Shown here in pieces: positions 1-53,836 of a stretch of DNA of 64,000 nucleotides. Origin of the DNA: Cenococcum geophilum (taxonomy: Eukaryota); NCBI GenBank assembly GCA_050273025.1, contig CP158635.1, positions 21,266,001 to 21,330,000 of the forward strand, written 5' to 3'. Under the pieces are notes generated by a model. The model made no database searches, was not told the origin of the DNA, and saw nothing but the letters and a program-made list of their open reading frames with translations. How positions within the stretch are numbered: the stretch's first letter is position 1; the number at the start of each line of letters is the position of its first letter. The position numbers were made by a program, and so were the translations under genes.

Positions 1-1666
1 AAATAGCAAAGTAGAGGATAGAGACTCTAATAAATCTTTATAAGGACCTCTATTTTTTTGTAAAACTAATATAAAAAAAGATAAAGAAGTACTATAATAA
101 TAAAAGATTTAAGGGACTAGATCTAAAGGAGGGGGATAAAGTATAGTTATTATATAAAATTTTTATAAGTTAATAACTAAGTAAAAAGTTGGACCACGTT
201 AGACTAAGACTATTTAATATTATAGCTAAGATTTTAGGGGTTATATATAGACTTAACTTACTAACAAGAATAAAAATCTACCTTATATAGTATATCGCGA
301 TACTAGAGCTAGTATATAGAGATATAAAGCTACTAGTTTGTAAAGCAGATACGTATAGAGAATAAAAGGAAGATAAATAGTAGGTTTTAAGGATTATTAA
401 TTATAAGGATATTAATAATAAAATATAGTATAAAGTAAAGTAGATAGGTTATAATAAAACTACCTAGAAGCTATTATAGAACTTAAGGAAGTCTATAGAA
501 AAGGTATAGAAGTATTAGAAGAGAACGGGTTAGGTAATATTAAAAAGAAGCTAAAGATAAAGGGATTAGTTAAAGGTAATAAATAAGCCAAATTATTTAA
601 GGGATCCACTATTAGTATATAAGTTATTTCCGTCTCTTCTTAATTAGAATCCTTTTTAGCCTCCTTAGCCTTAAGCTTAAAGAGACCTTACTTAATAAAA
701 CGTATCTCTTTAGAGCGCACCTTTTTATAAACTTTTATTAAATAAAATAACCGAGTATAAGTATATAGTTAAGCTTTTAGGGCCTAAGACGCTTTATTAG
801 AATAACATTAAACCTTAGCAAGAGCTTTAGCTAGCTTACTCTCTAGTTTTTTAGTAACTACTAATATATAAGACCCTAAGACATATTAGATAAGAAATAA
901 GACGATTATAGAAAATTATAAGATATATATATTTAGCGCTAGAAACGGATTAAACGTTATAGGATAACTATATATTCGCTTATATACACTTAGTATAGAA
1001 AGAAGGTTAGTAACTAGATGGAGCTGCAATTATAATATATATTAACTTCTTTTCTATATAATAAGAATAGGACGGTATAACTTTACTAAGTAAAAAATAA
1101 ATATTACTAGCTAATTATAACGATTAGATATAAAAAATCTAATAGGAGGTATTAGAGATAATAAAGGTTATTAAATTAAAAATGGGAATGTTATACCTCT
1201 AATAAATAACTTAAAGATAGGAGATATCTTTAAGGATAAAAATAAAAAGAAGGGGAATAGTATTACGGACCTTATATTAACAGTAGCATAAATATTAAGA
1301 AAAGATATAAATAGGTTAGTTAAGATAGTATAGGAGGCACTAAAACTAATTAAGCTATAAAATAAGGGGTAGCTAAGTTATATAGCTAGTTATGTTATAA
1401 GTTCGGAATATAGGAATATAGGAATATAGAAACGTAACGTACTAACGTACTAAGCATATTTCTTAGGCGCAGTATTATATATTTAAAGGACTATAGTCCC
1501 TACCTAGATAGTTCTCTTCTTTATAGTAAATCTTAGAATATAATTTAGAGTTAATCTATTAGGTAACTACTTCACTAGTTATATTATCGTTATTAACTTA
1601 CTAGTTACCTATATACTTAGCCCATTAGTAAGTCTACTATAGTATCTCCTATAAGGCTTTATTATA
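1..1666 (+). mobile_element. Ty3/Gypsy chromovirus G0, 3' end (integrase C-terminus, chromodomain, PPT, 3' LTR 1261-1666); RIP-degenerate, 5' part outside window
   Basis: 1-530 aligns by eye with 16370-16900 and 52710-53230 (GDKVWL, KKLDHVRLGPF, chromodomain YEVKW-GY-TTWEP after de-RIP). Purine tract aaaaagaaggggaatag precedes LTR start tattacggac. LTR matches 26831-27237. Confidence 0.9.
530..1152 (-). pseudogene. Antisense accessory gene of Gypsy G0: Zn2Cys6-like cysteine cluster + intron + coiled coil (RIP-mutated)
   Basis: De-RIP reading MPP..LGEVMPSCSRCAEKKLVCVAIAAPSGRQPSSCAECTRANMRSSCDVRSVSSAE / intron / WSR..EKLESELAKALAEV. Homologous to 16890-17516 and 53225-53836. Confidence 0.7.
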
Positions 1667-9500: not shown

Positions 9501-10047
9501 ACAAATATAAAGAGCTTAGCGGTAGGAAGATTAATAGGTACGTAGAGTAGTCCCTAATTAAGATGGTTTATTTACTAGGAAAGGCGCTTATTTATAGCAA
9601 GAATATTATCCTTAGTTAGTTCCTAGTATTAAGCGGCAATAGAGAGATTAAATAAAGCCTTAGGTTAATAGATAAAAGTAATATAAGCTTTATAAGCGCG
9701 TTACTCTATATATTCTTACTTTAAAGAATTAACGTTAATAACGTTAATTTTCTTACCTTAACCCTTCTGGCGTAAAGTAATAAAATTCTTATTTAGGGAG
9801 AGGATATATCTATTAAAGAGTAATAGTGTTATTAAATTAAGTTTTTCCTTTAGCTTTGCTATAAGATTTATCTTTACTAGCTCGTCTTCTTTAAGAGCTA
9901 AAAATTGGTCGTCTCCTAAGATAATTATATTATTAGTTTATATGCCAATAATTCTAAATGGGGTTCCCGTGGTTATAATAAGGAAGTATAAATTAAATAT
10001 AGAAGTAGTTATTAAAAGTTTCTCTTTATAGTGCTTGCTATAGGTAG

Positions 10048-13000
10048 TATTACGGACGCTTTAAGTACGATATTATAACTACTTAGAGAAGAGTTGGAAG
10101 AAGCTAGTTGGTTAATATAGGCACGGTCTAGGATGGATCCGGTAGAACTATATAACGAGAAATAGTAACTAAGTCACGTAATGTAATCTATATAATCTAT
10201 ATAATCTATATAATCCGCAATAGAGTAGATAGAGTATACGTACCTTACGTATAAGGAGGGTTTCTTAGGAGTATGGTTGTATATTTAAAGGACCACAGTC
10301 CCTACTCTAGATAGTTCTTTCCTTACAGTAATTCTCAGAATACAATTAGAGTTAATCTATTAGGCAACCACTCTACTAGTTATTATTACGTTATTAACTT
10401 ACTTATAATACCTATATACCTAGCCTAATAATAAGCCCATTGTAGTACTTGCTATAAGGTTCCGTTATATAATTACTACCTAGTTACGGTTTTAATAAGT
10501 TAAATAATATGCCACTAAAAGCAGCCACTATAACACCATTAATGGCGGTAACTACTTTAAGGTCTAGAGGCGACACTAGTATAGCAGATACTAACTTATA
10601 ACAACCTATAACGGTTAAACAATTATAAGAGATAGTTAACTAGTTAACAGAGAATAATGCGACACTTAAATAAAGGATTAATAGGATAGGCGTAGTAAAG
10701 GTTAAGTTACTATTAATTAAAAGATTCTTAGGAGAAAGATTAAAGCTTAAAGGATTTCTTACGCAAATACACTTTAAGGTAGCGCAGGAAGGAGTAAAGC
10801 TAGTAATACCTATAGATTAAATAGCTTACGCGGGATTATTCTTGTTAGGAAGAGCACTTAAATAGTTTAAGCCTTACCTTATAGAAATATAAGCAAATGG
10901 AATAATAACCACTAATTAAGAGGTGTGGTTTATATTCTTAAGTTAGGAGGGATTTATAGAGCGACTTATACAAATATTTGGAGACCTGGAGGTAGTAACT
11001 ATAGCGGAAAGAAAACTCCAAGATATTACGTAATAAACTTTAGCAATTAAGTATATAATACAGTTCTAAACGCTAGCTATATAAGTTAAGTGGAATAATA
11101 GGGCGCTTATAGCATAGTATAAATAGGGACTTAAGGCTAAAGTCTAGGACGTAATTATTTTAATAGAAGATGCGGACACCCTAAGGGAATTAATAGATTA
11201 AGCGATAAAGATTAATAATAGGATCTTCTAAAGGGAACAGACTAAGAGAGATTAGGATAGAGTTCTATAGTCGTATAAGGCGCAAAGTACGCAACAACTA
11301 AAGCTAAATTAGAAACTATAGTATAGCGCAGAGCTAATAGACCTAAGCAGTACTAAAGAAGCCTATAAGAGATAGAGTAAGAAACTATAAAAACCTAGAG
11401 GTTAAGGATCTAGTAATTACAGAACTAAGAAGTAAAGGCTAAACTAGGGATCTTATTAGCAGAAGACGTTTAGGCGGACTCTATAGTAAAGTTAATAGTT
11501 TAAAGATGGAGCTTATATAAATTGCAGGAAATAGGGTTATTTCGCAAGGGATTATAAAGATAGTTAGAGTTACTATATAATAAAGGGAACCTAACTAGCA
11601 AAAGACACACACGTATAGAGGGACGATAGTGTACTATAAGGAATAAAAGAATGTTTAATTAGGAGTTTCGCGTTTTGTTATAATAACGCATACTAAATTT
11701 ATAAAAACGCTAAGTACGGCGCAAGCTATTAGCTATAAAAGCTAAAGTTAAGAGGACTTAGAGGAACTAAAGAGTTAGATAAAAAAATAAGATTAACTCT
11801 ATAAGCTAAATTAGGATGTTATAGTAACATACGGACAATAATTAGCGACGATAATAATGGAATTAGAGTATTTATTAATTAATAGCGATAAGGATAGTAA
11901 GGGAACTAACTAGGGGTATCTAAACCTTAATAACGCGATAGAAGTAGAGACTAAGACCGCCATAGAGTAAGGTTTAGTAACGGGCATTATAACACCGTTG
12001 GATACGGCATCCATCGCTTTATAAGATAAAAGGAGCAATATCTAAAGACGATTAAGTAAGTAGATAACTACTAGTACTAGCTTACCACTTAATAAAGGCA
12101 AAAGGCTAAAGGCTTAAGATTCTTAAGACGAGATAAGAGAGATCTAAGACTCCAAAGATAGGATAAGGACAGCTTAAGGACCTATAACGGACAAAAACCG
12201 ATGGAGTAGAGCAGCGGCTTAATTTAAAGATATATAAATAAGCGAGGGATAAGAGTTCCTAACGGCATAAGATTCTTAAGACAAGATAAGTAAGATTTAA
12301 GACTCTTAAGACGAGATAAGAACACTATAGACGCCTAGTTAGACTAAGGCGAGAGCTAAACTTAAGTTAAAAGCAAGCTTAGGATTAAGAATCTTATAGG
12401 ACTAAGATTTTAATAAATAAATAAGGACTATTAACAAAATTAGAGAATCCGTAATATAAATAGCAGTTAAACTAGGAGACAGATATATAGATCTAGAAGA
12501 CTTACTAGGGAAATATAGTGTTTAGCCTAAAGATTAAAAAGTTAATACTAAGATTAAGAAGTAAGAGAACTTTAAGGATCCACTTATAAGACGCGATAGA
12601 AAAGAAACCATAGAGGAATTTAGAGTAAGGATTACCTTATAGCAAGAATAGAAACTAGATAAGAGATCTAGTATATTAGGACGTATAAGGGACAGAGTAC
12701 CTATATAAAAAGTCACTAATAGGCTTAGAGTAGGTATACTAAGAGCCAAGTAGCTTACCAAACTGGAATAAGAAGAGGATCTAGGGATTTTAATTAGGTT
12801 TAAAGAATAATATATAAAGGGCTGTTATAACGCAGTAATAAGAAGATACTTCCTTACAAATAAGCCGTATATACTTAAAGGGTTATACTAAAAGTGGTAT
12901 AAACAACGATATAATAATAAGTAGGAAGATTTTTATATATAGTTAGATAAGAAAGTTATCTAAAACCACCTAATTATAAAAAAGGCTATAACACATATTA

Positions 13001-16000
13001 AAGGGGCCTTAATTATAACGTTAAAAGATTTAAAGGAGCAATTAGAGGACTGGAGAAGTGAAAGACGAATCTTAATACCTGCGAATAAAGTTATAACGCT
13101 TAGATTAATATAAGAGAAGTTTAAACTTAAGGATAAAGACAAGCTAAGAGTTAACCCAAGACACTAAGCATATTATATACTATTATAGATAGTATATATA
13201 GATAATACGTGCAATATATATAGAGCACCTAAGGACAAAAATTAGAAGTATTTAATAAGAATATATTGGATAACGGATGAGGCGAAATATTAAAATGCTA
13301 AGTATATACATAGTTGGCACCTAGTAGAAGTTTAAAAATAAGAGGACTTAATACTTTAACCAGGAAAATTCCTTACAGAAAAATGCCTAAATGGATAATA
13401 ATAGTAGGAATATCTAGAAAATACCTGTCTATGGTATATTAAAGATAAAAAGCGAACTAAGTATTGGCCTAAGTTGGACTAAGTATAACTAGGATTAAGC
13501 AGCTAATAGTTGGGAAAAGTAGAGGCTTATAAAACTAAAGGGAACTAGTAGTAGAGCCTTAGACCCTTAAAGGAATTTAAGGATAACACCTAAATTTATA
13601 AGTTAAGTGGCAAGATTAACAGTTTAAGGCATTAATAGATAGTGGAGCAATAAGGAACCATATTTTACTAGCAGCAGTTAAAAAAAATAGGGTTACTACA
13701 CAGAAAAAAGGAGTACTTTTACCTATTAGTAATAATTTTAGGAGATCTAATAGCCTATAAAGGAGGTATTGTTAATCTTAAAACAGGACCTATTTAGTTA
13801 ACTATTAAAGGGAGATAGATTAAGATGTCTTTTAATATATTACTATTAGGAAATAATAAAGCAGTATTAGGAATACCTTAGTTACAGAAATACAATCTAA
13901 AAATCGATTAGGTTATAGGTTAGGTCGATATTAAGGATACTTAACGCCGTAAGATGTAATAACAGGCCAAGTTAGTATAGTACTAAGTAGGAGCAACCTA
14001 TAAGGAAATAGAGAAGGGGTTAAGCTATATACCAAAGAGATACCATAAGTATAGTAAGAAACTATAGTCACTAAAGAGTAAAAAGCTGTTAGAGTACGTA
14101 GTATAGGATTATAAAATAGAATTAGAACTAGGAACAAGTCTAAGGTTCTTTTTAATCTATAAGCTTACTAAAGAGGAAGGTAGAGCACTTAAAGAGTTTA
14201 TTTAGGAGAACTTATAAAAGGGATATATTAGACCATCGCAGTTATTAGTAGGTTATTTAGTACTGTTCGTCCTAAAGAAAAATAGCAAGCTAAGGCTGTG
14301 TATTAACTATAGATAGTTAAACAGCATCACTAGGAAGGATAGGTATCCTTTACCCTTAATTAGCGAAATTTAAGATAGGATTGGTAATATGTAAATCTTT
14401 ACAAAGATAGATCTAAGATAGGCGTACCATTAGATTAAAATTAAGGAAGGCGATGAATAAAAGGCAGCCTTTAGGTTAAAGGAAGGACTATATAAACCAT
14501 TAGTTATACAATTCGGGCTTATAAACGCACTAGCAACGTTTTAAAAGCGAATTAATAATATATTAGGAGAATACTTAGATGAATTTGTTATAGTATATCT
14601 TAATAATATTATTATCTATTTAATAATAGAGGAAGAATATAGAGAATACGTTGAATGGGTTTTAAAGAGACTATAAGAGGAATAGATGCTAGTAGTAATT
14701 AAGAAATACGAGTTCTTTACTAGGAAGACTAATTTTATTAGATTTATTATTAAACTAGGCCAACTTAGTATAGAGCTAAAGAAGATTAAGGCTATAGTGA
14801 ATTAGTAGGAACTAGAGAACGTTATATAGTTAAGATTGTTCCTAGGGTTTTATAATTACTGCAGAAGGTTTATAGCGTAATGGTTAAAAGATATTAAACC
14901 ATTTACGCGGTTAATAAAGAAAGAAGAACTATAGGTATAGGGAAAGGAGCAATAAGAACTGTTTAAGAAAGTTAAAGAGTTATTTACCTAGGAGCTAGTT
15001 TTTAAGATCTATTAACTAGGTCTAGAGATGGTTATAAAAATAGATATATTAGACTTTACATTAGGAGTATGCTTTATATAAAAGTATCTAAATAGATGGC
15101 ACCTAGTAGCATACTATAGTTAAAAGATAACACCACTAGAGTTAAACTATAACATCTATAACAAAGAGTTATTAGGTATAGTTACAGCACTAAAGGAATA
15201 GAAAGCATTCTTATAAGGCACAGAAAAACTATTTATAGTTAAGATGGATTATAAGAACCTAATAGGATTCCTAATAAAGGAACTTAACTAAAGATAAGTT
15301 AAATAGGCAGAGATGCTTATAGAATACTATTTTAAGATTTAGCATATTAAGGGTATAGACAATACGCGGGCCGACGTACTAAGTTAAAAAGCTAAACTAT
15401 AAAATAATAAGAAGCTATTAGGGGCTTTACTACAAAAAGATATAGATAGGTTAATTAGGTATAATTATCCAAAAATTATAATAACTTAGAAAAAATTAAA
15501 GAAAGTTTATAAGTTACTAGAAAGCTTTTAGGTATAAAGAATTCTAAAAGCACAGCTAGAAGATCTATAGACGGATATATACAAAAACTAAGAAGTAAAG
15601 TATATCCTAAGAAGCATAGTAGAGCACTTTATAGAAGATTTCTATAAGGGATTAACTTAAGGACATAATAGGGCTATAGGCTTAGTGTTAAGACTCTAAA
15701 AGGAGTATATCATTAACGGAATCTAGAGGATAGCTAGGAAGGTCACTAAAGAGTATTTAAATTGCTAAAGAAATAAACTAACGAGGCATAAGCTATATAG
15801 AGGGCTATAACCTATTAAAATACCAAAGAGACTATAGGAGGTTATATTATAGGACTTTATTATAAAGTTACTAAAATTAAGAGATCCTATTACCAAATAA
15901 GATCATAACGCGATCTTAGTAATAGTGGATAAGCTTATAAAGTAGGGATACTTTATAGCATATACAGAAGAGATATTAGCAAAAGATGTCGCTAGAATCT

Positions 16001-18046
16001 ATATTAAAAAAGTATTTATAAGACATAGAGTACTAAGTAAGATTATATTAGATAGAGATCTAAGATTTATAGCAGTATTTTAGGAGGTATTCTTAGCGGA
16101 GTAAAAAGTTCGAGCAGTAACTTCTACCGTATATTATCCGCAGACAGACGGCTAAATAAAAAGATTAAATTAGACACTAGAGCAGTATCTAAGGCACTAT
16201 ATTAATCACGTATAGAATAATTAGGTATTATTATTACTAGTTATATAGTTTATATATAATACAACACCACAAAAAGGAATAGGTACGTTACTATTTAAGG
16301 CGAATTATAGATATAAGCTAAGAACATTATTATCGCCACGTTAAGTAAAGAAGATAAGTAGTATAGCTAAGCAAAGGATAGAGACACTAATAAATCTTTA
16401 TAAAAACCTTACGGAAACAGCTAAGGTAGTATAATAGAGAATAAAGAAATACTACGACGCTAAAAGATCTAAGGGACTAGATCTTAAGGAGGGAGATAAA
16501 GTATAGCTACTATATAAAAATTTTAAGAGTCGACGACTAAGTAAGAAGTTGGACTATATTAGACTAGGACCTTTCGAAATTATATAAAGAATTTCACCAG
16601 TTACATTTAAGTTAAACCTACTAGCTAAGATAAAAATCTACCCTATACAGCATATTATAATACTAGAGCTAGTATATAGGAATATTAAGCTACTAGTCTA
16701 CAAAGTAGACACGTATAGAGGACGAGAAGAAGACGAATAATAAGTTTTAAAGATTATTAGTTATAAGAACGTTAACAATAAAATATAGTATAAGGTTAAG
16801 TAGATAGGCTATAATAAGACTACCTAGGAACTACTAAAAAATTTAAAGAACGCTATAAGAAAGGTACAGGAGTATTAAAAGAGATTAGGTTAGGCAACAT
16901 TAATAAAAAAGGATTAAAAAAGGAGTTACTTAAGGGGGACCTAGGAGGAACAGCTACTGAACTATTTAGACTTGTTTTCTTTATAAGGGAGTCCGTTCTT
17001 TTATTACTAAGTTCCTACAGACCTTATTCTATAAGCTTCTACTCTTTAAAATAACCCTTTTTATAAACCTATTTAAGACGTAAAAGATAAGCAGAGGCTA
17101 GAAAACAAGTTTTAAGAGTATACTGTTAAGCGGCCGCAGCCTCTTATTCCGCCTCTCGCGATTAACGCAGTTTATTAAGGGCACTTAAGAGCTTACTATT
17201 AAGCTTTACAGCAGTAAATTAAACACGAGACCCTATAATAAATTACTTAGAAAACTTAAAGACTATTAAGAGTTATAGGACGTGTATACTTAGCGTTAGA
17301 AATAAAGCGAACATCGTAGAACAAATAAATATTTACTTTAGTGCACTCTAAATAAGAGGAAGGTTGCCGAGATAAAGGACTTACTAGCGTAACGCAAACT
17401 AACCCCTCTTTCGCACAACGAGAACACGGAGATAGTATTACTTTACCTAGCGATAGTATAACGGTGATAGTACGAGCGCGACAGGCTATAGAAGAAAGAG
17501 AAGTTACTTTTGGTATAATAAGTAATAATGTTAACTAAATTAATTAGACGGATATTATACCTCTAGTAAATAACTTAGAGATATTTAGAATCTTTAAGGA
17601 CAAAGATAAAGAGGAGGGAGATAGTGTTATAGACGCTTTAAGTACAATATTATAACTACTTAGAGAAGAGTTAAAAGAAGCTAGTTAGTTAATATAGGCA
17701 CGGTCTAGAATAGATCTGGTAGAACTATATAACGAGGAATAGTAACCAAGTCACGTAATATAATCTATATAATCTATATAATCTATATAATCCGTAATAG
17801 AGTAGATAAAGTATACGTACCTTACGTATAAGGAGGGTTTCCTAGGAGTATAGTTATATATTTAAAGGACCACAGTCCCTACTCTAGATAGTTCTTTCCT
17901 TATAGTGATTCTTAGAATACAATTAGAGTTAATCTATTAGGCAACTACTCCACCAGTTATTATTACGTTGTTAACTTACTTGCAATACCTACACACCTAG
18001 CCCAATAATGAGCCCATCGTAGTACTTGCTACAAGGTTCCGTTATA
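10048..18046 (+). mobile_element. Ty3/Gypsy chromovirus C, full length (~8.0 kb), same family as G0, D and F
   Basis: LTRs 10048-10469 and 17625-18046; TSD GGTAG at 10043-10047 and 18047-18051; PPT aaagaggagggagatag. gag from ~10509, protease ALIDSGA ~13630, RT ~14100-14900, RNase H, integrase, chromodomain ~16735-16880. Confidence 0.93.
16890..17516 (-). pseudogene. Antisense accessory gene of Gypsy C: Zn2Cys6-like cluster, 55-bp intron (17287-17233), coiled coil
   Basis: Directly readable SPCSRCAKEGLVC..SP.SRQPSS(C>Y).ECTK.N....(C>Y)DVR..S.A; branch ctaa and acceptor tag; exon 2 WSRV..AAAKLDSELSSALDELRQSREAEQEAAAA after de-RIP. Confidence 0.75.
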
Positions 18047-21000
18047 GGTAGCCCACTAATAAGTTCCTACTTCTGCAATTTTATATAATAGCTTAAGCAT
18101 AACTATAATCGTATCTTTAGGATATTGATAGCAAATTTACTCTAGAAGGTATGCCAATATTAAGCGCTAAAGGTGCGTCTCTAATTAGATATAGGCCTAG
18201 GTAATATCTTATAAATAAACCGCCATTTTATTCTTTATTAAGGAGGGAGCTAGCGTAATAATAACTTACTAACTAGCTTATTAAATTATAGGAGATTATA
18301 TAAGAATTACCTCCTTACTATTATTATTATAACCTTAGATAATAAGCCTTAATTTCTTAAATAGGGCGTTAGTAGCTTTACCTTTAATCTTATTAACTAT
18401 TCTTAACTTAAAGATACAAACTTTATTAAACTTAGTAGGGTTATATTTCTTAAATTTAAAGACTCCTCTTATAATAAGACTATCAATCTCCTACTTATTA
18501 GATGCTTAGAAAGGAGCTCTAGGGGTTATAATATAACCTTCCTTTTAGAGCTATTTTGCGAGCTTAAAGTTAGCCTTCTCCTTAGCTGTTATAAAGGCCA
18601 TTAATAACTCGACTTTATTCTTAATAGCGGTAATAAATTACGCTTTAAAATTAACAAGGTATTAACGATTTTATAATCCCTTTAGGCGACCTCTACTGCG
18701 TTATAGTTGCGGCATATCTACTATAATTATATTAGGATTGTAGTTACCTTCTAGAGTATATTAATCGTGGTTCTCCTTTAAGGTATCTTTTAGGGCATCC
18801 TATAAAGGCTTAGAACTATTATCTTTATAGTAAGGCTTAATAATAGTTAAACGGAATTAAGTAGGTCCGTAAGGCATCTAAATAGTATAAGTTTAACTAT
18901 TAATTATAATAAGTTGGTGTGGGCCTAACTACCCTCCCTTTTTACGCTATATATATACCTTAGACTAAAGTAGCAGATTAAGCGTAGTTAAGGTATTTAG
19001 GCTATTTCTTATTTCTAGTATATTATTAACCTAGCGTATAGCATAGAGACGTTATACCTCCTTTATTACCTTATAAATAGCCTTAGCTTATTATATAACG
19101 GAGGGAGATAGTAAAGAATTGTTAGTTACTTAAGGGTAGGCGCTAAAGACTAGTAATATAGGTATAAGCCTATCCGGGCTAGCGGAGTTATTAACAGCCT
19201 TAACGGCTATTTATCAGATAAGCTCTTTATTAGCGCCCTCTAGTTCTAAAGAAATAATCTTATATACGCGGCGTAACGGCGTATAATATCGCTCTACTTT
19301 TTTAATACTATTATATGCCTTAATAGGGACTTCCTTAACCTTAATTGCTATTACCTTTATCTATTATTAAAACTTTATAGATAAGAAGTTTTTTTCTACG
19401 TTATAGACGATTTAATTAGGGGGTCCTATATAAATATTAATCTAGTATAATTAAAGGGTATCCTATATATTGTTAGCTAATATATCCTTTAAGAAACGTA
19501 CGGCTTAAAAGGAGGTTAAGAAGTTAATAACTTAGAGTACTAGCTTGCCGCTAAAATATATAACGTTAATAATAATACAGAAGTTAAAGTTATAGTTATC
19601 TTTAAGGGTAAACTTAAATCGGCTAGGGGACTTTTAGTTTATTTAATAGTAATAGCAGTACTTTATAAAATACTTAATTGCCTTAACCTTAACTTTATAA
19701 CCTACTTATTAAAGAACCCTAAGCAATTAATAAATAGATAGGTGGCTAAATTAACGGTATAGTTAACGTAACTTTAACTTAGTTAGGTGGCTCTAAGTAA
19801 TACTTTTTTTTAGTTAATAAAGGAGTAACTAAGGGTAGCCCTACTTGCGTATAATAGGTACCCAATTATCTCCCTATATAAGCATATTCTTAAGGTTATC
19901 GAGCTTAACGCCTAATTTATTTATATCTCTAATATAAAATAGAAATAGAGTATTTATAGAAATAACGTGGAAAGTAATATACCCTAAGGGGGTTTAGACC
20001 CTAATTATACTAAGAGAGATTATAGTACTCTTGCTAAAACGTATTATATATTAGCCTACCGTTAATTGTTAATCTAGATAGAGGTATTAAGTTATTAAAG
20101 GGCTCGAACTTAAGGTTCTCCTACTATAAATACTCCTATAGCTCTAGTATCTGGTATAATACTATAGAAGATATTCGCAGAGTATCTATTATTAAAGAAA
20201 AACGCGGAGCTTTTCTTTAGCTTATTAAAGATATTTAACTTCGTAATAGAATATAGCGTAGATTAGTTATTAAGAATAGTAATAGTTTGTATACTATCTA
20301 CCTTACTATACTTAGTAAAGTATTGGTTAGGTAAGTAGTCCTTAATTTCTATATCTATAAGGAGCTATTTAGCCTTATTAACCTTACCCTTAAGATCTTT
20401 TATGCCTTTATATTAAACTAAGAAGCTTTAGAAGTAGGCTATAGTAACCTTATAATTTTTAACATTTCTTACACTCTAGCGAAACTTATTATATACCTCC
20501 TTTTGCTTATTAAGAGAATGCCTAGTTAACTAGTAATTCGGTTTCTTATAAACGTAGCACTTTTTTTAGCAATTACTTTAAAATAAACCTCTATAAGGAC
20601 CTCTACCTTTACCTTATAGTTATTAATTATACCCTCTACTATATTACCTACCACGGCTACTATATATTTAATTAGTCTAGTTATAATTATATTAGTTGGC
20701 TAGGTTAATTAAAGTAGGTTAAAGTTAGGCATTAAATTGCTATACTTCTTAAGAGCGTAAAGCGGTGCTAATAGAAGATCTTAATTAAGTATATACTCCT
20801 TTATAAGTATTTACAAGATTAAAGAGAGTAAGGTTATATTCTTTAACGCCTTAGTATACGCTAATAACTTAATTACGTAGGCTAAAATCCTCTTAATATA
20901 ATTTAGATAAACCATACTAAATTATTTAAAGTTAATTAAAGAGCTTTTAAAGATAATTAAGCCGAGGGACACCTAGGTTTATAGCAATAATCCTTAAAAA

Positions 21001-26830: not shown

Positions 26831-29800
26831 TATTATGGACCTTATATTAGCAGTAGTAAAACTAATAAGAAGAGATATAAACGGATTAGTTAAGATAGTA
26901 TAGCAGGTGCTGGAACTAATCGAGCTATAAAATAAAGGGTAGCCGAGTTATATAGCTAGTTACATTATAAGTTCGGAATGTAGAAACGCAACATACTAAC
27001 ATACTAATGTACTAACGTACTAACGTACATTTCTTAGGCGCTATATTATTTATTTAAAGGACTATAGTCTCTACCTAGATAGTTCTCTTCTTTATAGTAA
27101 ATCTTAGAATATAATTAGAGTTAATCTATTAGGTAACCTACTCTACTAGTTATATTTATGTTATTAACTATTTCTTAACCTATATACCCAGCCCATTAAT
27201 AAGTCCATCATGGTATTTCCTATAAGGCTTTATTAAATATTTATTACTAAGGTTATAGTAAAGAAAGTTAAATAATATACCATATAAATTAGTAACTATA
27301 ACGCCACCTATTATAATAACTACTTTAGGATTAGGAGGAGATACTAACATACATAACAATAAGTTAGCAATGGTTACAATAAACTAGCTTAGGAGTATTG
27401 TAAAGTAAAATAATGCTAATAATTAGGCGCTCCTTTAGCAGTTATAAGATATAAAGAGAGAAAATATTAAAATACTATTAATTAAAAGATTCTAAGAAGA
27501 AAAGTATAAGCTAAAGGAATTCCTTATATAGATGAAACTAAAAATCCGATATAAAGAAACGAAGCTAAAGTAGGCTATAGATTAGGTCGCGTATATTGGG
27601 TTATTCTTAATAGGTAGGGCACTTAAGTAGTTTAAATCTTATTTTATGGAGATATAGGCTAATAGATTAGTAACCACTAATTTAAAAACGTGGTATATAT
27701 TTTTAAGCTAGGAAGGATTTGCTAGTAGACTAATATAAATATACAGAGATCTAAAATCGGTAGTAACGGCTAAAGGGAAGCTATATTAGCTTATATAAAA
27801 AGGATCGGCTATAGACTATACGATATAGTTCTAAACGCTAATAGCGTAGATTAAGTAGAACTAAGGGGCATTAATAGCTTAGTATAAGAGAGGGCTAAAG
27901 GCTAAAGTCTAAGTAACTATAATACTAATAGACGATCTAAGTAATATAAGAGAGCTTATTAAGTAAGCTATTAAAGTAAATAAGCGGCTATACTAGAGCA
28001 AGAAGTTAAGTAGAATATTATAGGGACTAAGATATATACGGAAGATACACTAATAGGTATTTAAGCTATAGTATAACGCAGAGCTAATAGACCTAAGTGG
28101 TACCAAAAAAAATAGGAATGGACGACTGTGGAAACCTAAAGAATAAGAATTATGTAATTAAAGATCTAAAAAGTAGAGGCAGAACTAGGGATCTTAGCAG
28201 TAGAAGATATTTAGGTAGACTCTATAGTAAGAAAAGTAGTACAAAAAAGGAGCTTATATAAACTGCAGAAAATAGAGTTATTTCGCTAAAGACTACAGAG
28301 GTGGTTAGGGTAACTACGTAGTAAAGGGAATAAAGCTAGTAAACGATATATATATATAAAGGGATAATAATATACTACAAGGAACAAAAGAATGTTTAAT
28401 TAAAAGTTTTGCGTTTTGTTATAATAACGCATACTAAGTTTATAAGGACGCTAAGTACAGCGTAAGCTATTAGCTATAAGAGAGTTAGATAAAGAATAAG
28501 ATTAACTCTATAAACTAGATTAGGACTAAGACGGTATAATAAGCTAGTAGTTAGCGAAGAAAGTTCTTACGCACCAGTTCTATTTGGTAATAGAATTTAA
28601 AGATTAAGATAATTAGACTATTAGTAGCGATAATAAGGCAATAAAGGCAGCTTACTAGGAGTATATAGACTTTAAAGACATAATAATAGAGGTAGAGATT
28701 AAATCTATTATAGAGAGAGGATTAGCAATAGGGATTAAGACTCTATTAGATACAATATCTATCGCTTTATAAGACGTAAGAGAAGTAGGGCAGTAAACTA
28801 CTTTAGCACTTAATAAAGGTAAAAGGCTAAAGGCTTAAGATTCTTAAGGTAAGATAAGATATGCTTAAGGACCTATAATAAAAAGTAATTAATAGAGCAG
28901 AGTAGTAGCTTAATTTAAAGACTAATAAATAAGCACGGGACGAAGATTCCTAGGGCACTAAGATTCTTAAGACTAGATAAGGACGCTATAAAAGCCTAAT
29001 TAGACTAAGGCTAAAGTAAAGCTTAAAAAAGAAGCAGGCTTAGGGTTAGAAGCACCCGTATTAGGCGAATAAGACGTTTAGCCTTAGAGTCGAACGATTA
29101 ATACCGGAATTATAAGATTTAAAGATTTAGAGAATTTAATAAGCTAATATAAACCAGGAAAAGACTAGGAGGGATTTAAGAACTAAATTAAAGCGTAGTA
29201 AGAATAGCGAGTTTACTATAGGTTAAAGATACTAGGTAAACTAAAGATAACCTTATAAAGGGTTACTAATAGGCCTAAAGCAGGCACGCCAAGAGTAAAG
29301 TGGCTTAAAAAACTAGAATAAGAAGAGAACTTAGAGGTCTTAACCAGATTTAAAGAACGGCATATAAAAGGCTGTTGTAATGCAGTAATAACGAGATACT
29401 TCCTTATGGATAAATAATATACACTAACAGAGCTATACTAAAAGTGGTATAGGTAGAGATGTAATAACGACTAGGAAGACTTCTACTTATAGTTAAATAA
29501 AAGAGTTGTTTAGGACTAAGCGATTATAGAGAAACGTATAAGTTATATTAAGGGAGCATTAATTATAATGTCTAAAAACCTAAAAGAACGATTAGAGGAC
29601 TAAAGATAAGAAAGATAGATCTTAGTACCTATAAATAAGAAACTAACGTTTAGATTAACTAAATAAAGATTTAAACTTAAGAGTAAAGATAAGCTATAAG
29701 TTAACCTAAGACACCTAGTATATTATATATTAGTATAGATTGTATATATAGACGATATATAATATATATATATATAAATCTAAAGGAAAAGAATCGAAAG

Positions 29801-30909
29801 TACCCTATAAGGATATATTAGGCGCTAGATAAGCGATAGTATAGAAATGCTAAATATATATATGGCTAGCATTTAATAAAAGTTTAGAAATTAGATAACT
29901 TAATACCTTAATTAGAAATATTCCTTATAAAAGAATACTTAGATAGATAATAGTAGTAGGAATACCTAGAGAATACGTATCTATAGTATATTAAGGATAA
30001 GAAGCAAACTAGGTATTAGCTATAAAAAAAGCTAAATATAGCAGGATCTAGTAGCTAATAATTAGGAAAAGTAGAGGCCTATAGGACTAAAGGGAGCTAA
30101 TAGTAGAGCCTTAGACCCTTAAAGGAATTTAAGAACTGCACCTAAATTTGTAAGTTAATTGGTAAGATTAATAGTTTAAAGTACTAATAGATAGTAGAGC
30201 AACGAGGAACTATATCTTATTAGTAGTAGTTAAAAGGATAGGGTTACCTTACGGACAGAAGGAGCACCCTTACCTATTAGTTATAATTTTAGGAGGTTTA
30301 ATAGCCTGTAGAGGAGGCATTATTAATCTTAAAATAGGACCAATTTAGATAACCATTAAAGGAAGACCAATTAAGATATTTTTTAATATCCTACTATTAG
30401 GACGGGATAAAGCAGTATTAGATATACTTTAGTTATAAAAAATATAATCTAAAGATCGATTAGATTATAGGGTAGGTTAATATTAAAAATACTTAACCGT
30501 ATAAAAGACGTATAGTAACCAAGTTAGTATAGTACTAAATTAGAGCAACTTATAAAGAAACTAAAAAAGGGCTAAGCTATATACTAAAGAAATACCATAA
30601 GTATAGTAAAAGGCTATAGAGCCCAGAAAGCAAAAAGCTGTTAAAGTATATAGTATAGAACTATAAGATAGAATTAGAACTAGAAATAAGTTTAAAGTTC
30701 TTTTTAATTTATAAGTTAACTAAAGAAGAGTTAAGAGCATATAAAGGGTTTATTTAAGAAAACTTACAGAAAGGATATATTAGACTATTATAGTTATTAG
30801 TAGGTTATCTAGTACTATTCGTACTATAAAAAAAAACTTAGGTTATATATTAACTATAAACAATTAAATAGCATTATAAGGAAGGATAGGTATTCTTTAC
30901 CCTTAATTA
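26831..30909 (+). mobile_element. Ty3/Gypsy D, 5' half (LTR 26831-~27237, gag, protease, start of RT), truncated
   Basis: LTR matches 1261-1666; internal region collinear with 10470-14365; breaks after RT motif KDRY.LPLI. Confidence 0.88.
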
Positions 30910-33174
30910 AAAGACTAAAGAGTAAACTATCTCTAGCTCTTATTAAGGTTTAGCGACGCTCTAATAAAGTATCTTAGGCCCTAAAGATTCAGCTAAATAT
31001 CTACGCTCAGTTAACCCATCTCTTAAAGGTTTGTAAGAAAGTACATTTAAAGAAGTCATATCTAGCAGAGTAAGGCTTAGCGGAACTTAAGGCTAAGAAG
31101 GCTAAAAAGAATTTTAATTAAGAAGAGGCGGAAACAGCTAGTACGCTGGTAGTAGATCTCTTAGATACTTTAGCTTATCTATTACCTTTAACTAATCCTT
31201 TTATCTTTAACTCCTTTTTAATATTACCTAACCTATTTTCTTCTAATACTTCTATACCTTTTTTATAGCTTTCTTTAAGTTCTATAATAGCTCCTAGGTG
31301 GTTTTATTATAGCCTATCTACTTTACTTTATACTATATTTTATTATTAATGTCCTTATAACTAATTATCTTTAAAACTTACTATTTATCTTCTTCTTATC
31401 CTCTATATATATCTGCTTTATAAACTAGTAGTTTTATGTCTCTATATGCTAGTTCTAGTATTATAATATACTATAAAGGGTAAATCTTTATCTTTACTAG
31501 TAAATTAAGTCTGTATATAACTTTTAAAATCCTTTCTGCGATTTTAAATAGTCCTAGTCTAACTTTTTACTTTGTCGTTAACTCGTGAAATTTTTATATA
31601 ATAGCTATACTTTATCCCTCTCTTTTAGATTTAGTCTCTTAGATCTCCTAGTATTATAATACTTTTTATTTTTTTTATACTAGTTTTACTATAAAGTAGA
31701 GGTCTTTATAAAGATTTATTAGAGTCTCTATCCTTTACTTAGCTATACTACTTTTTTTTTTACTTATTATAGTAATAACGATATTTCCAGCTTATATCCG
31801 TAATTCGCCTTAAATAGTGACATCTTTATACCTTCCTATGGTATTACGTTGTATATAAACTATATAACTAGTAATAATAATACCAAATTATTCTATGTGT
31901 GATTAATATAATATCTTAGGTACTGCTTTAGTGTCTAATTTAATCTTTCCGTTTAACCGTCTATCTATAGATAGTATGCTATTAATATTACTACGCGAAC
32001 CCCTTATTCCATTAAAAATACCTCTTAAAATACTACTATAAATCTTAGATCCCTGTCCGATATAATTTTACTTCATACTCTATATCTTATAAATACTTCC
32101 TTTATATAGATTCTAGCAATATTCTCTACTAAAGTTTTTTCTATATATGCTACAAAATAGCCCTATTTAGTGCATTTGTCCACTATTATAAGGATTATAT
32201 TATACTCCTATTTAGTAATAGGATCTTTTAATTTTAGTAACTTTATAATAAAGTTATATAATATAGTTTCTTATAGTTTCTCTAGTATCTTAATAGGCTG
32301 TAGCTTTCTATACGGCTTATACCTTATTAGCTTATTTCTTTAGTAATTTAGATATTTCTTTATAACTTTTCTTGCTAAACCCTAGATTCTATTAATAATA
32401 TACTCCTTCTAAAGTCTTAATACTAACCCTTAGGCTCTATTATGTCCTTATATTATTCCTTTATAGAAATCTTTAATAAATTCTTCCGTAATTCCCTTTA
32501 GGATATATATGTTTGTTCTTTACTTATACTAGTCCACTTTTAGGTCCTCTTACTATACTTTATAAATCCTCCTTATCTAATTACTTTCCGGTAATTTATA
32601 CGTTGCTACTGGCTTTAGGTAATTATACTTAATTAATTAATCTTTATTTTTGCGTAGTATTGCTCCTAATAGCTTCTTATTATTTTATAGTTTAGCTTTT
32701 CTACTTAGCGCGTTAGCTCTCGCATTCTTTATGCCTTTAGTATACTAAATCTTAAAATAATATTCTGTAAGTATCTCTATCTATCTAATTTATCTTTAAT
32801 TAAGTTCTTTTATTATTAGGAACCCCATTAGGTTCTTATAATCCATCTTAACTATAAATAGTTTTTCCATGTCTATAACAATGCTCTCTATTCTTTAACT
32901 ACTATAATTATACCTAATAACTCCTTATTATAAATGTTATAGTTTAACTCTAGTGGTATTATTTTCTAACTATAGTATACTACTAGATGCTATATATTTT
33001 TGTACTTTTATAGTAAATATACTCCTAGTATAAAGTCTAATACGTTTATTTCTATAACCATTTCTAGTCCTAGTTAGTAGATCTTAAGGATTAGTTTCTA
33101 GGTAAATAATTCCTTAAGTTTTTAGAATAGCTTCTTTTACTTACTTTCCTATATCTATAGTTCCTCTTTCTTTA
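30910..33174 (-). mobile_element. Inverted Gypsy segment (RNase H, integrase, chromodomain, part of antisense gene), no LTR
   Basis: Reverse complement aligns with ~14912-17200 and with 1-850. Exon 2 of the antisense gene therefore reads on + at 30910-31231. Confidence 0.85.
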
Positions 33175-34156
33175 TTGATATTTGCCAGGAAACAGCATGA
33201 AGGTAAATTAAATACTTTGTCAGCATGGCCAGTTTAACTGACAAGCTGTAGACGGGATGATACTAGCGTATTATTCCATCCAAAATGTAATATCTAGACA
33301 AGCAATTTTTCCCTAGTGTACTAATTTTCTTTAGTTCAACGTCATGCATCTAGTCTTACGGTTGAGGGGCGGGGGAGGCACCAACCCCGTATATACATAT
33401 GATCAGATACAGCCAGAAATGGGTATCGCTGCTGGTGGCCTCATAAAACAGGCTATCGTGCGCGACACAGGTCGCAAATGGCTCGCCACTCAGACGAAAA
33501 CATTCAACATGCAGGTTCTGAATACTCTGCACTTCCGTCATGTGACAGGCTTCCAACCATCTGAGCCTCCCATCGACGCTCGAACCTATGCAACCTATGG
33601 CTACCCTTTCTTCAGCATGTACGAGGAACCCAGTGATGTGTCTGGCGATTTCTCTCTTGTTAAGTCTATAGGTCATCCAAGATCTATCCATCAGCCCCAG
33701 GATTGAGAATATCACCAACAGACCGCCGCCATTTGCCCGTCTAGTGCCAAAGCTAGCGCTTCCTCTGCATCTAGTTCCGGATTGCTTGTGGAGTGGGTAT
33801 GTCACACATGTACGCTCATAAACAGCAGCGAAATGTCCTTCTGCGATTCCTGCATGACCCACCGGCGCCACCCAGCGAACTTGGGAGTGGCGGCCTCTTC
33901 GAAAGAAAGTCAAGCGGATTGGACGTGCCATATCTGTACACTCATCAATGGTGCCGAAAGACCCGACTGCGACGCTTGTTTGACCCGCCGAAGTCCTCCG
34001 GCAACTCCAGCAGTGCCAGCCATGGCAGCAGGAATACCGAGGGACCGAGGGGACAACAAAGTAGGGTTCTGGAACCCGAATGGGCCAATGAATAAATTTA
34101 GGTCCTTGCAGGACTTGGAGAGGGAGTTGGCGGAGCGAGGGACGGCAATTTTTTAA
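33175..34156 (+). pseudogene. 5'-truncated ubiquitin-like domain protein with conserved fungal C-terminal domain and two RanBP2/NZF-type zinc fingers
   Basis: Spliced LIFARKQHE/DGMILAYYSIQN/FNVMHLVLRLRGG (introns 33203-33251, 33287-33334). Then EMGIAAGGLIKQ..FNMQVLN..YGYPFFSMYEEPS; in-frame TGA at 33704-33706; then WVCHTCTLIN..FCDSC and WTCHICTLIN..DCDAC; stop at 34156. Confidence 0.8.
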
Positions 34157-45200: not shown

Positions 45201-46310
45201 AAGACGGCAGGAGCAGTATCTAAAAGAGATTAAGTAAGCAGATAACTGCTAGTGCTAGCTTACCACTTAATAAAGATAAAAGGCTAAAGGCTTAAGATTC
45301 TTAAGACGAAATAAGAGAGATCTAAGATTCTAAAGATAGGATGAGGATAGCTTAAGGGCCTATAACGAATAAAAACCGATAGAGTAGAGCAGTAGCTTAG
45401 TTTAAAGATATACAAATAAGCTTAGGATAGAGTTTCCCACAGGCATTAGATTCTTAAGATGAGATAGATAAGATTTAAGACTCTTAAGACGAGATAAGAA
45501 CACTACGGATACCTAGTTAAACTAAGGCGGGAGCTAAGCTTAAGTTAGAAGCAAGCTTAGGATTAAAGAATCTAAGGGACTAAGAATTTAGAGTATAAAT
45601 AAGGACACCTATAGGCAAGAGGCAAGGAGCTTCCTTATAGATTAGAGAATCTATAATATAAATAGCAGTTAGACTAGGAGATAGATATATAGACCTAAAA
45701 GACTTACTAGGGGAATACAGTATTCAGCCTAAAGATTAAAAAGTCGATACCAAGATTAAGAAGTACGACGACTTTAAGGATCCACTTATAAGATATAAAA
45801 GAAAAGAAACTATAGAGGAATTTAGAGCGAGAATTACCTTATAGTAAGAATAGAAACTAGATAAGAGATTTAGTATATTAGGATGTATAAGGGATAGAGC
45901 ACTTATATAAAAGGTCACTAATAGGCCTAAAGTAGGCACACTAAGGGCTAAGTGGCTTACTAAATTAGAATAAGAAGAGGATCTAGGGATTTTAACTAGG
46001 TTCGAAGAACAATATATAAAGGGCTATTATAACGCAGTAATAAGAAGATACTTCCTTACGGACGAGCCGTATACACTTAAAGGGTTATACTAAAAGTGGT
46101 ATAGACAACGATATAATAATAAGTGGGAAGATTTCTATATATAGTTAGATAAGAAAGTTATCCAGGACCACCCGATTATAGAAAAGGCTATAACTTATAT
46201 TAAAGGAGCCTTAATTATAACGTTAAAGGATCTAAAGGAGTAATTAGAGGCATCGGGAAAATATTCGCAGGATGAGATTTAAGTAGACTTTGGTTTTCGC
46301 GTTTCGCGTA

Positions 46311-46705
46311 ATTGACATGCAATTTGACCAACTCGACACGCAATTAACTAACTTGACACGCAATTGACTAACTTGACATGCAATTTAACCAACTCAACAC
46401 GCAGTTGACCTACTTGATATATAATTTAACTAACTTAACACGCAGTTGACCTACTTGACATGTAATTTAACTAACTTAACACGCAGTTGACCTACTTAAC
46501 ATGTAATTTAACTAACTTAATACGCAGTTGACCTACTTAATATATAATTTAACTAACTTAATACGCAGTTGACCTACTTAACATGCAATTTAACTAACTT
46601 AATACGCAATTGACCTACTTAATATGCAATTTAACTAACTTAACACGCAATTGACCTACTTGACATATAATTTAACTAACTTAACATATAGTTAACCTAC
46701 TTAAC
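46311..46705. repeat. 20/21-bp subterminal tandem array with 41-bp higher-order period
   Basis: Alternating gcagttgacctacttgacat / gcaatttaactaacttaacac units. Confidence 0.9.
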
Positions 46706-46836
46706 AACTTTAAAAGCTAACTGTATATTTCTTAACGTGCGATTAAGGTAAAGTTATATGCTATATATTTAACTATTATATATAATCCTATACAATCTTA
46801 TACAATCTCATACAATCTTATAGTCTTATTACTTGG

Positions 46837-47232
46837 AGGCTCTGCACGAGGCTCTATACGAAGCTCTGCGTACAGAGGCTCTGCACGAAGCTCTGCGCAT
46901 AGAGGCTCTGCACAAAGCTCTGCACGAAGCTTCGCATAAGGCTCTTCACGAGGCTCTACACGAAGCTCTGCGTACAGAGGCTCTGCACGAAGCTCTGCAC
47001 GAAGCTCTGCACGAAGCTCTGCACGAAGCTCTGCACGAAGCTCTGCACGAAGCTCTGCACGAAGCTCTGCACGAAGCTCTGCACGAAGCTCTGCACGAAG
47101 CTCTGCACGAAGCTCTGCACGAAGCTCTGCACGAAGCTCTGCACGAGGCTCTGCGCGAAGCTCTGCGTACAGAGGCTCTGCACGAGGCTCTGCGCGAAGC
47201 TCTGCGTACAGAGGCTCTACACGAAGCTCTGC
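46837..47232. repeat. 12-bp minisatellite (gctctgcacgaa)n
   Basis: Long perfect run at ~46980-47145 with variant units on both flanks; source of the EALH-repeat ORF. Confidence 0.95.
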
Positions 47233-47365
47233 ATCGGGTCCCCGCTATATTCCCGATAGCCTCTACACGTGCCTCTACCCTATGTAACCACCTTATTTTT
47301 TACCCTTCCTTCCTTCTTTATATCCTCCCTACCTAGGGAGGCACCAGAACGGCAGCCAGCAGAGG

Positions 47366-50600: not shown

Positions 50601-50670
50601 ACTACAAAAAGATACAAATGGGTTAATTAGGTATAATTATTCAAAAATTACAGTAACTTAGAAAGAATTA

Positions 50671-51819: not shown

Positions 51820-53224
51820 CTTAGAAAGAATTAAAGAAAGTTTATAAGTCACTAGAAAGCTTTTAGGTATAAAGAATTCTAAAAGCATAGCTAGAAGATT
51901 TATAAATGGATATATACGAAAACTAAAAAGTAAAGTATATCCTAAGAAGCATAGCAGAGCACTTTATAGAAGATTTCTATAAGGGATTAACTTAAGGATA
52001 TAATGGGGCCATGGGCTTAGTGTTAAGACTTTAAGAGGAGTATATTATTAACGGAATCTAGAGGATAGCTAGAAGGGTTACTAGAGAGTGTCTAGATTGC
52101 TAAAGAAATAAACTAATAAGGCATAAGCTATATAGAGGGCTATAACCTATTAAAATACTAGAAAGACTATAGGAGGTTATATTATAGGACTTTATTATTA
52201 AGTTGCTAAAATTAAGAGATCCTATTACCGGATAAGATTATAACGTAATCTTAGTGATAATAGATAAGCTTATAAAGTGGGGATACTTTATAGCGTATAC
52301 AGAAGAAATATTAGTAGAAGATGTCGCTAGAATCTATGTTAAAGAAGTGTTTACAAGATATGGAGTATTAAGTAAGATTATATCGGACAGAGATCTAAGA
52401 TTCGTAGCAGCATTTTAGAAGGTATTCTTAGCGGAGCAAGGAGTTTAAGCAGCAACTTTTACCGCATATTATCCGCAGACAGACAGTTAAACGGAAAGAT
52501 TAAATTAGACACTAGAGCAGTATCTAAGGCACTATATTAATCACGCATAGAATAATTGGGTATTATTGTTATTAGTTATATAGTTTATATATAATGTAAT
52601 ACTATAGGAAGGAATAGGTACTTTACTATTTAAGGCGAATTATAGATATAAGCCAAGAATATTATTATTGCTATATTAAGTAAAGAAAACGAGTAGTATA
52701 GCTAAGTAGAGAATAGAGACTTTAATAAATCTTTATAAGAACCTTATGGAAATAGCTAAGGTAGTATAGCAAAGAATAAAGAAATACTATGACGCTAAGA
52801 GATCTAAGGGACTAGATCTTAAGGAGGGAGATAAAGTATGGCTACTATATAAAAATTTCAAGAGTTAATAACTAAGTAAGAAGTTGGACCACGTTAGACT
52901 AGGACCTTTTAAAATTACATAAAAAGTTTTACCGGTTATGTTTAAGTTAAACCTACTAGCTAAAATGAAAATCTACCCTATATAGTATATTGTAATGCTA
53001 GAGCCAGTATATAGAAATATTAAGCTACCAATCTATAAAGTAGACACGTATAGAGGATAAGAAGAAGATAAATAGCAAGTTTTAAAGATTGTTAGTTACG
53101 AGGACGTTGATAATAAAATATAGTATAAGGTTAAGTAGATAGGCTATAATAAGACTACCTAGGAACTACTAAAAAATTTAAAGAATGTTATAGGAAAGGT
53201 ATAGGAGTATCGGAAGAAAATAGG

Positions 53225-53836
53225 TTAGGTAATATTAATAAAGAAGGATCGTTAAAGAATAAGTTACCTAAGGGGGACCTAGGAAGAACGACTGCCGAAC
53301 TACTTAGAGTTGTTCCCTTTATAGGAAGAGAGTTAGTTCTCTTATTACTAAGTTCCTGCAGACCTTGTTCTATAAGTTTCCACTCCTTAAAATAAACCTT
53401 CTTACGAACTTTCTTAAGATAAAGGAGATAAGCAGACGCAGAGATATGGGCCTCTAAAGCCTTCTGCTCCGCATTCTAAGAACGTTCTAACTTAGTAAGG
53501 GTATAAGTCAGCTTACTATCTAGATAAGCAGCAGCGGATTAAATATAAAACCCTATAATAAATTACTTAGGGAACTTAAAGACTATTAAGAGTTATAGGA
53601 CGCGTATACTTAGTATTAGTAGAAGAGCGAACGTTATAGGACAAATAAATATTCGCTTTAGTGTACTTTAAGCAAGAGGAAGGTTGCTGAGATAAAGGAC
53701 TCGCTAACGCGACGTAGACTAACCCCTCTTTTATATAACGAGAATACGGAGACAGTATTATTTCACCTAGCGACAGTATAGCAGTAATAGTACGTGCACA
53801 ATGTTGCGCGTGTGAAGAAGAAGAAGCTTTAGGTAT
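53225..53836 (-). pseudogene. Antisense accessory gene of Gypsy F (Zn2Cys6-like + intron + coiled coil)
   Basis: De-RIP MPKASSSSHAQHCART..LSLGEIM.SPCSRC.KEGLVCVALASP.SQQPSSC.ECTKAN. Donor atacgc (RIP of GTACGC) at the same position as in copy C. Confidence 0.75.

Follow-up and report, generated by a model that had tools for sequence, protein, structure and literature searches.

The locus described here raises the question of whether an open reading frame (ORF) that runs antisense to pol in several copies of a fungal Ty3/gypsy retrotransposon is a gene in its own right and, if so, what its product may do. We analyzed a 64,000-nucleotide (nt) stretch of the Cenococcum geophilum genome (GenBank assembly GCA_050273025.1, contig CP158635.1, positions 21,266,001 to 21,330,000 of the forward strand), hereafter the window, to whose numbering all positions refer unless another locus is named. 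An earlier note on this DNA had reported the same antisense ORF in four element copies, and the ORF is indeed present at all four sites, three with both exons and one with exon 2 only. We consider it probable that these are copies, killed by repeat-induced point mutation (RIP), of an antisense accessory gene of a Ty3/gypsy chromovirus, the spliced product of which would be a nuclear nucleic-acid-binding regulator. The gene has a two-exon structure and a fixed position, is under purifying selection, is spread over many element copies and is restricted to elements.

The antisense gene in the window

The gene lies on the strand opposite to pol, in the interval bounded by the chromodomain end of pol on one side and the 3' long terminal repeat (LTR) on the other. 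The four copies, c1 to c4, and their parts are located as follows.

17516..17288, minus strand: c2 exon 1, with a RIPped start codon ATA, a basic N-terminal segment and a six-cysteine module; 0 in-frame stops
17516-17514, minus strand: c2 start codon ATA (RIPped ATG)
17287..17233, minus strand: c2 intron, 55 nt, phase 1, 5' AT (RIPped GT), 3' AG
17232..16853, minus strand: c2 exon 2, with the long-helix region, the linker and the conserved C-terminal motif; 8 RIP stops
16855-16853, minus strand: c2 stop codon TAG
53188..53836, minus strand: c3, with exon 1 at 53836..53608 (0 stops), intron at 53607..53553 and exon 2 at 53552..53188 (2 stops)
493..1152, minus strand: c1, with exon 1 at 1152..931, intron at 930..876 and exon 2 at 875..493
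30909..31268, plus strand: c4, exon 2 fragment only; 4 stops

Copy c4 is found on the plus strand because it is part of an inverted partial element copy. The 5' ends that had been given for the copies are exact, and the 3' ends each fall 37 nt before the stop codon. In c2, 108 nt separate the start codon from the edge of the 3' LTR. In c1, c2 and c3 the intron is 55 nt long and sits at the same place, as had been described; it is in phase 1 and splits a TGG codon, its 5' GT is RIPped to AT and its 3' AG is kept. The cysteine spacing is C-x2-C-x6-C-x13-C-x2-C-x8-C, each position being C or a RIP-derived Y, so that the second gap is six residues and not the five read earlier. Of the six cysteines, four are left in c2 and one each in c3 and c1, and the sixth position is Y in all three copies and C in relatives only.

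The copies differ by more than RIP, again in agreement with the earlier description. Copies c1 and c4 represent a second subfamily of the element, and c1 differs from c2 by 123 transversions, 157 transitions and 52 gap columns, with the cysteine spacing and the 55-nt intron site still kept. The ratio of TpA to ApT is 1.6-2.2 in the gene copies versus 0.68 in an intact relative, which is a signature of RIP. In c1 the reading frame is shifted close to the N-terminus and broken by 10 stops. RIP has killed the window copies, which contain 0-10 in-frame stops, and the protein can no longer be made from them.

Intact relatives and gene structure

A profile (A3) of two stop-free exon 1 peptides was run against 1.84 billion representative proteins and matched 152 of them at E ≤ 1e-3 and 49 at E ≤ 1e-10. 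Nearly all matches are short RIP-style ORFs; the C/Y spacing is kept in about 103 of the 150 matches listed, and all six cysteines in two. The 152 matches, together with the retained spacing, indicate that the antisense ORF is more than a chance frame. Un-RIPped proteins such as P0153 and P0171 were found by word-indexed searches seeded with the least-mutated matches. These word-indexed protein searches returned no meaningfully named relative and no named NCBI or UniRef protein, all hits being derived from JGI/ENA metagenomes and unnamed, hypothetical or plainly mislabelled.

A metagenome scan yielded 75 related loci, in which 84 gene copies were examined. The integrase/chromodomain end of pol adjoins the gene on the opposite strand in 82 of the 84 copies; one exception lies at a contig end and the other has no pol nearby. 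No stand-alone copy of the antisense gene was seen among these 84 copies. Three of the 75 loci are un-RIPped, namely L002, L003 and L008. L002 and L003 have a GC (guanine plus cytosine) content of 0.47-0.48 and carry complete genes, the spliced frames of which are open over 209 and 197 residues, respectively, whereas L008 carries the last part of exon 2. The 55-nt introns read GTACGC..CTAG in L002 and GTGCGC..GTAG in L003. Over 85 aligned copies that span the intron, including L002 and two window copies, the intron is 55 nt long in 84 and 64 nt in the other, every length thus being 1 mod 3. Of the 85 introns, 25 begin with GT and 60 with AT, the AT being accounted for by RIP change at TpG; 81 end with AG and 4 with AA.

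We typed pol on the intact L003 and aligned the RIPped pol frames of the window, which hold 236 stops, to L003 at the DNA level. The L003 pol contains an Asp protease and the domains RVT_1, RT_RNaseH, Integrase_H2C2, rve, SH3_Tf2-1 and Chromo (1092-1140), the rve match scoring 30.6 bits, just below its cut-off of 32.6. A pol with protease, reverse transcriptase, RNase H, integrase, SH3 and chromodomain identifies the element as a chromovirus. Upstream of pol, L003 also has an ORF of at least 900 residues (L003:4204-6903, minus strand), long for gag; its N-terminus is gag-like, a single CCHC knuckle follows, and then come about 600 residues, with repeats of the DSQDEM type and an end rich in Cys and His.

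Selection on the spliced antisense frame

We estimated the ratio of nonsynonymous to synonymous substitution (dN/dS) between L002 and L003 by the Nei-Gojobori method. In the antisense frame dN/dS was 0.06 over exon 1 and 0.23 over exon 2; pol proper gave 0.08, and the pol frame over exon 2 gave 0.73. The positions of the differences between the two loci follow the same frames. In pol proper, differences occur at 0.29-0.37 of the pol third positions versus 0.06-0.11 elsewhere. In exon 2, they occur at 39 of 118 antisense third positions versus 29 of 235 others (Fisher 7e-6), and these antisense third positions are pol second positions. On the 3' side of the antisense stop codon, the periodicity reverts to the pol frame. 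Transversions counted over about 88 copies stand at 0.125 for antisense third positions versus 0.046 and 0.052.

Periodicity in exon 1 cannot separate the strands, since the third positions of both frames coincide there; the order of variability among the antisense positions (2 < 1 < 3) fits the antisense frame. Across the 55-nt GT..AG interval, the selected frame moves by exactly one base, as a spliced antisense protein gene predicts. Judged from these substitution patterns, the protein of the antisense gene is under purifying selection as strong as that on pol. The proposal of a real, spliced and element-borne antisense protein gene under purifying selection is thus borne out by the open frames of the intact homologs L002 and L003 and by their dN/dS values of 0.06 and 0.23.

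The sense pol frame across the antisense gene

In L002 and L003 the sense pol frame has no stop after the chromodomain and stays open across both the antisense gene and the polypurine tract and for 120-140 nt into the 3' LTR, which in L003 adds 281 residues. In L008 it is open up to the contig end. This open pol tail is located at the following positions.

L002:3784-4718: open pol tail
L003:29-906: open pol tail
L008:2-387: open pol tail
16853-17760 of the window: corresponding stretch in c2

When synonymous codons were resampled with the antisense protein held fixed, the pol frame was open in just 0.1-1.2% of trials, and when the non-coding parts (the LTR part, the 5' leader and the intron) were shuffled it was open in 0.1-0.4%. 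The open pol tail itself is not due to chance. The antisense stop codon had been said to overlap the end of pol; it does overlap recognizable pol, by about 10 chromodomain codons, but the pol frame of the intact relatives does not end there and continues.

Such an arrangement raises the alternative of a non-functional protein: the antisense frame might arise as a by-product of the sense-strand pol tail, or the antisense RNA alone might matter. This explanation draws on the absence of stops from the pol frame, throughout the region in L002 and L003 and to the contig end in L008, and on exon 1, where the coincidence of third positions makes periodicity uninformative. We regard it as highly improbable. 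The variation in exon 2 falls at pol second positions, which are antisense third positions; dN/dS over exon 2 is 0.73 in the pol frame versus 0.23 in the antisense frame; the selected frame shifts by one base exactly at the 55-nt GT..AG interval; and seven ORFs, described below, lack precisely that 55-nt interval.

Over exon 2, the amino acids of the pol frame drift almost neutrally (dN/dS 0.73). Since the pol frame is free of stops, and amino-acid selection acts on the spliced antisense frame instead, the gene may have arisen by overprinting of the pol tail. A broader scenario, possible although on balance doubtful, is that the chromovirus family keeps about 0.9 kb of two-strand coding, that the gene came from pol-tail overprinting, that its product is a DUF3716/zinc-cluster DNA-binding regulator of the LTR or of host silencing, and that it is shared by many Pezizomycotina elements.

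Proposed splicing and mode of expression

Seven ORFs on short environmental contigs (P0048, P0153, P0171, P0173, P0176, P0177 and P0179) cross the exon junction (...DAEW/SRV..., with the slash at the junction) without the 55 nt. From their sequences, these intronless ORFs are best explained as assembled spliced transcripts.

In the explanation that we favor, the element would carry an accessory gene on the strand opposite to pol, after the chromodomain end and before the 3' LTR; its promoter would lie in or beside this LTR. The antisense transcript would then be spliced and translated. The intron would outlast retrotransposition because it is not spliceable from the sense genomic RNA. The product would be a nuclear nucleic-acid-binding regulator of element expression or of host silencing.

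Architecture and family of the predicted protein

The predicted protein is 197-209 residues long and consists, in order, of a basic N-terminal helix, the six-cysteine module with the spacing given above, a helix of about 100 residues, a variable acidic linker and a conserved hydrophobic-acidic C-terminal motif. AlphaFold2 modeled the full-length protein with one helix at residues 98-199 (predicted local distance difference test, pLDDT, 93-98) followed by a disordered tail. The earlier note had placed a coiled coil after the six-cysteine module; in this model a helix of about 100 residues comes after the module. A complex model of two copies of P0171 (residues 29-190) with zinc, calculated without an alignment, scored 0.10 versus a mark of 0.32 and speaks neither for nor against oligomerization. 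A Foldseek search with the low-confidence domain model gave 0 matches, which has little meaning at that model quality.

We compared the cysteine module with Pfam families. Zn_clus (PF00172, cut-off 21 bits) scored 13.2 bits with c2, 13.6 with P0153 and 17.0 with L002 exon 1. The alignment covers profile positions 18-37 of 39 and the first cysteine triplet only, and 7 of the 42 family members match at E ≤ 1 (best E 0.0063). DUF3716 (PF12511, cut-off 22 bits) scored 18.6 bits with L002 exon 1, over profile positions 4-59 of 59, and 15.4 with P0172, and 3 of the 42 members match at E ≤ 1 (best E 0.0006). No other Pfam match covers the cysteine module as fully as DUF3716, but 18.6 bits is less than 22 and only 3 of the 42 members match. 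In the ESM Atlas, the neighbors of the protein are Ascomycota clusters of 192-214 residues, the nearest of which (score 0.91) bears the automatic name 'Zn(2)-C6 fungal-type domain-containing protein'. With the N-terminal domain alone, DUF3716 is the only named family among the Atlas neighbors; in one cluster (score 0.76), 28% of the members carry it. On these sequence relationships, the module is probably a zinc-binding six-cysteine domain that borders DUF3716 and Zn_clus. We name it borderline, and not a demonstrated GAL4-type cluster, because of the Pfam scores below cut-off, the absence of a PDB match and the poor model.

The likeness to GAL4-type proteins deserves separate consideration, as the protein might be a true Zn2Cys6 binuclear-cluster transcription factor that forms a coiled-coil dimer and binds the LTR of the element. 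The six cysteines form two C-x2-C-x6/8-C halves and are followed by a long helix, and the order of cluster, helix and acidic-hydrophobic tail resembles a miniature Gal4-like activator. The weak Zn_clus matches (7 of 42 members at E ≤ 1, best 0.0063) and the automatic name of the nearest ESM Atlas cluster point the same way. However, Zn_clus reaches 13-17 bits versus a cut-off of 21, with the first cysteine triplet alone aligned, and to the second half of the profile. DUF3716 scores higher and over its whole profile, and it is the only family named among the Atlas neighbors of the N-terminal domain. The family profile has no match to any solved Zn2Cys6 protein. The PROSITE pattern for Zn2Cys6 clusters is C-x2-C-x6-C-x(5-12)-C-x2-C-x(6-8)-C, and all cysteine gaps of the module fit it except the linker, which at 13 residues is one above the range. 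Finally, the basic residues between the second and third cysteines of GAL4-type clusters are largely absent here (A-K-E-G-L-V). We therefore judge a true GAL4-type factor to be unlikely, and the membership in this family that had been proposed earlier is not supported as stated, given that Zn_clus is under its cut-off with half of the profile aligned and that there is no PDB profile match.

Regulator or retrotransposition factor

The protein could also serve the retrotransposition cycle directly, by binding genomic RNA or cDNA, integrase or chromatin, with the cysteine module as a zinc knuckle for nucleic acid or protein. The gene occurs only inside elements (82 of 84 copies adjoin pol, with no stand-alone copy), the purifying selection on it equals that on pol in strength, and the protein reaches no transcription-factor family. 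DUF3716 proteins occur in an unrelated class II transposon as well; the passage concerned in PMC8232023 describes DUF3716 genes carried by REP9 of Zymoseptoria tritici. The evidence for a role in the cycle is indirect, however, and a CCHC knuckle is already supplied by the element's own Gag. As formulated, we hold this account to be rather unlikely; a direct role in the retrotransposition cycle as such is about as likely as a role as regulator.

Several points weigh against the favored explanation, a nuclear nucleic-acid-binding regulator made from a spliced antisense gene. With regard to the protein, no recognized DNA-binding family is reached, both Zn_clus and DUF3716 being under the curated Pfam cut-offs, and the family profile gave 0 matches at E ≤ 10 against PDB sequences. 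The cysteine module has a pLDDT of 43-59 in the AlphaFold2 domain model (mean 58), and its second half is below 50 in the full-length model. The long helix shows only a weak heptad signal in a crude test (hydrophobic residues at a/d positions 0.62 versus 0.51 shuffled, P = 0.03 over its full length), and P is 0.36 for its most conserved part. With regard to selection, the dN/dS figures come from one pair of intact elements, the copies are not independent because 69 of the 75 loci lie on contigs with one common prefix, and part of the conservation may be owed to the sense strand, in which the pol frame has no stop anywhere along the gene. With regard to expression, the seven intronless ORFs may stem from RNA or from DNA. 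Four sequencing runs yielded pieces of related copies only (85-95% likeness), with no joint at 17233-17287, which says nothing on splicing or expression; one raw RNA run gave 17 partial reads, all at 16732-16951. No transcript start, splice junction or protein was seen for the organism of the window in these four runs, which are without this locus.

The host element and its setting

The first 55 kb of the window are AT-rich, most of their 2-kb bins having a GC content of 0.27-0.39; over the last 8 kb the GC content is 0.49-0.53. Element copies were resolved by self-BLAST and LTR alignment.

10048..18046, plus strand: element A, full-length RIPped Ty3/gypsy chromovirus copy, 7,999 bp (self-BLAST, LTR alignment, flanking bases)
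10043-10047 and 18047-18051: target-site duplication of element A, 5 bp, GGTAG (flanking bases)
10048..10469, plus strand: 5' LTR of element A, which begins TATTAC (RIPped TGTTAC) and finishes GTTATA
17625..18046, plus strand: 3' LTR of element A, the side from which the antisense gene would be read inward
17596..17624, plus strand: polypurine tract, purine-rich, adjoining the 3' LTR of element A (sequence reading)
~43219-54367: second full element copy, broken by an insertion at 46250-48219
3-1667: 3' element fragment
27030-30909, plus strand: forward element fragment, cut within the reverse transcriptase (end ~30909)
33176..31185: inverted truncated element fragment, matching element A 14913..16936

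The LTRs of element A are 92% identical to each other in the LTR alignment, and their terminal TG and CA are RIPped to TA. The polypurine tract lies inside the presumed 5' untranslated region of the antisense gene. Between its 5' LTR and pol, element A has about 2.9 kb, space for a long upstream ORF similar to that of L003. The U3 region of the LTR holds three or four tandem 9-nt units at 17750-17795, GATTATATA-like in this RIPped copy, and the U3 of the intact relative (L002:3715-3750) holds tandem 9-nt units that are ACGTGATGT-like, beside short CACATG/CATGTG palindromes. These tandem units are candidate promoter or enhancer elements for either strand.

At 27030-33176, the forward fragment is joined head-to-head to the inverted fragment (33176..31185 plus the exon 2 remnant), which suggests a nested insertion or a rearrangement inside the RIPped block. 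Within the 2-kb insertion at 46250-48219 (GC about 0.43), about 9-12 units repeat in tandem every 41 nt at 46262-46768. The GC-rich end of the window (56788-63262) carries long ORFs on both strands, for example at 56788-57867 (minus), 59082-60047 (plus) and 62330-63262 (plus), of which the latter two resemble membrane-transporter segments. These are presumably ordinary host genes at the border of the RIPped repeat block.

Relation to known systems

A gene in a comparable place has a precedent in Botrytis cinerea, where Boty-like Ty3/gypsy retrotransposons reportedly carry a further, antisense gene, brtn (Zhao et al. 2011, Virology 417:248). Passages that cite this work present brtn as an extra antisense gene of Boty-like elements (PMC8365987, PMC4227169, PMC5987419), and one of them lists gag, ZnF_C2HC, RP, RT, IN and CHROMO domains together with brtn in a Boty-like element (PMC4227169). 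As described in these passages, brtn resembles the gene in the window copies in being an extra antisense gene of a chromodomain gypsy element beside the 3' end of pol. A Monilinia transcript that matched both a chromodomain Pol and BRTN, in the passage concerned (PMC5987419), fits an overlap like that of the antisense gene here. The comparison with brtn is one of layout and not of sequence. Additional ORFs between pol and the 3' LTR, some of them antisense, are also described for plant gypsy elements (PMC7264820, in the part concerned); these occupy the same position as the gene described here, differ in having plants as hosts and are likened to it by position only. Literature searches gave no relevant report on an antisense zinc-cluster gene in fungal chromoviruses, and no later work on brtn beyond the citing passages (PMC8365987, PMC4227169, PMC5987419). 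The layout of an antisense accessory gene has thus already been reported from Botrytis, and what is added here is the evidence of selection for the protein and the stop-free overlapping pol frame.

The antisense gene is widespread: 152 proteins matched the profile, and 75 metagenome loci contained 84 copies. A six-cysteine module, a long helix and a conserved tail define the architecture of its protein, and in this sample the gene is never found outside the element. The open pol frame over the antisense gene provides a compact natural case for the study of opposite-strand overlapping genes. In the fungi concerned, retrotransposons shape genome compartments and, in Botrytis, yield small-RNA effectors, as stated in the passage concerned (PMC8365987). 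Should the protein control the LTR or counteract silencing, these fungi would have a regulator that the transposon itself encodes.

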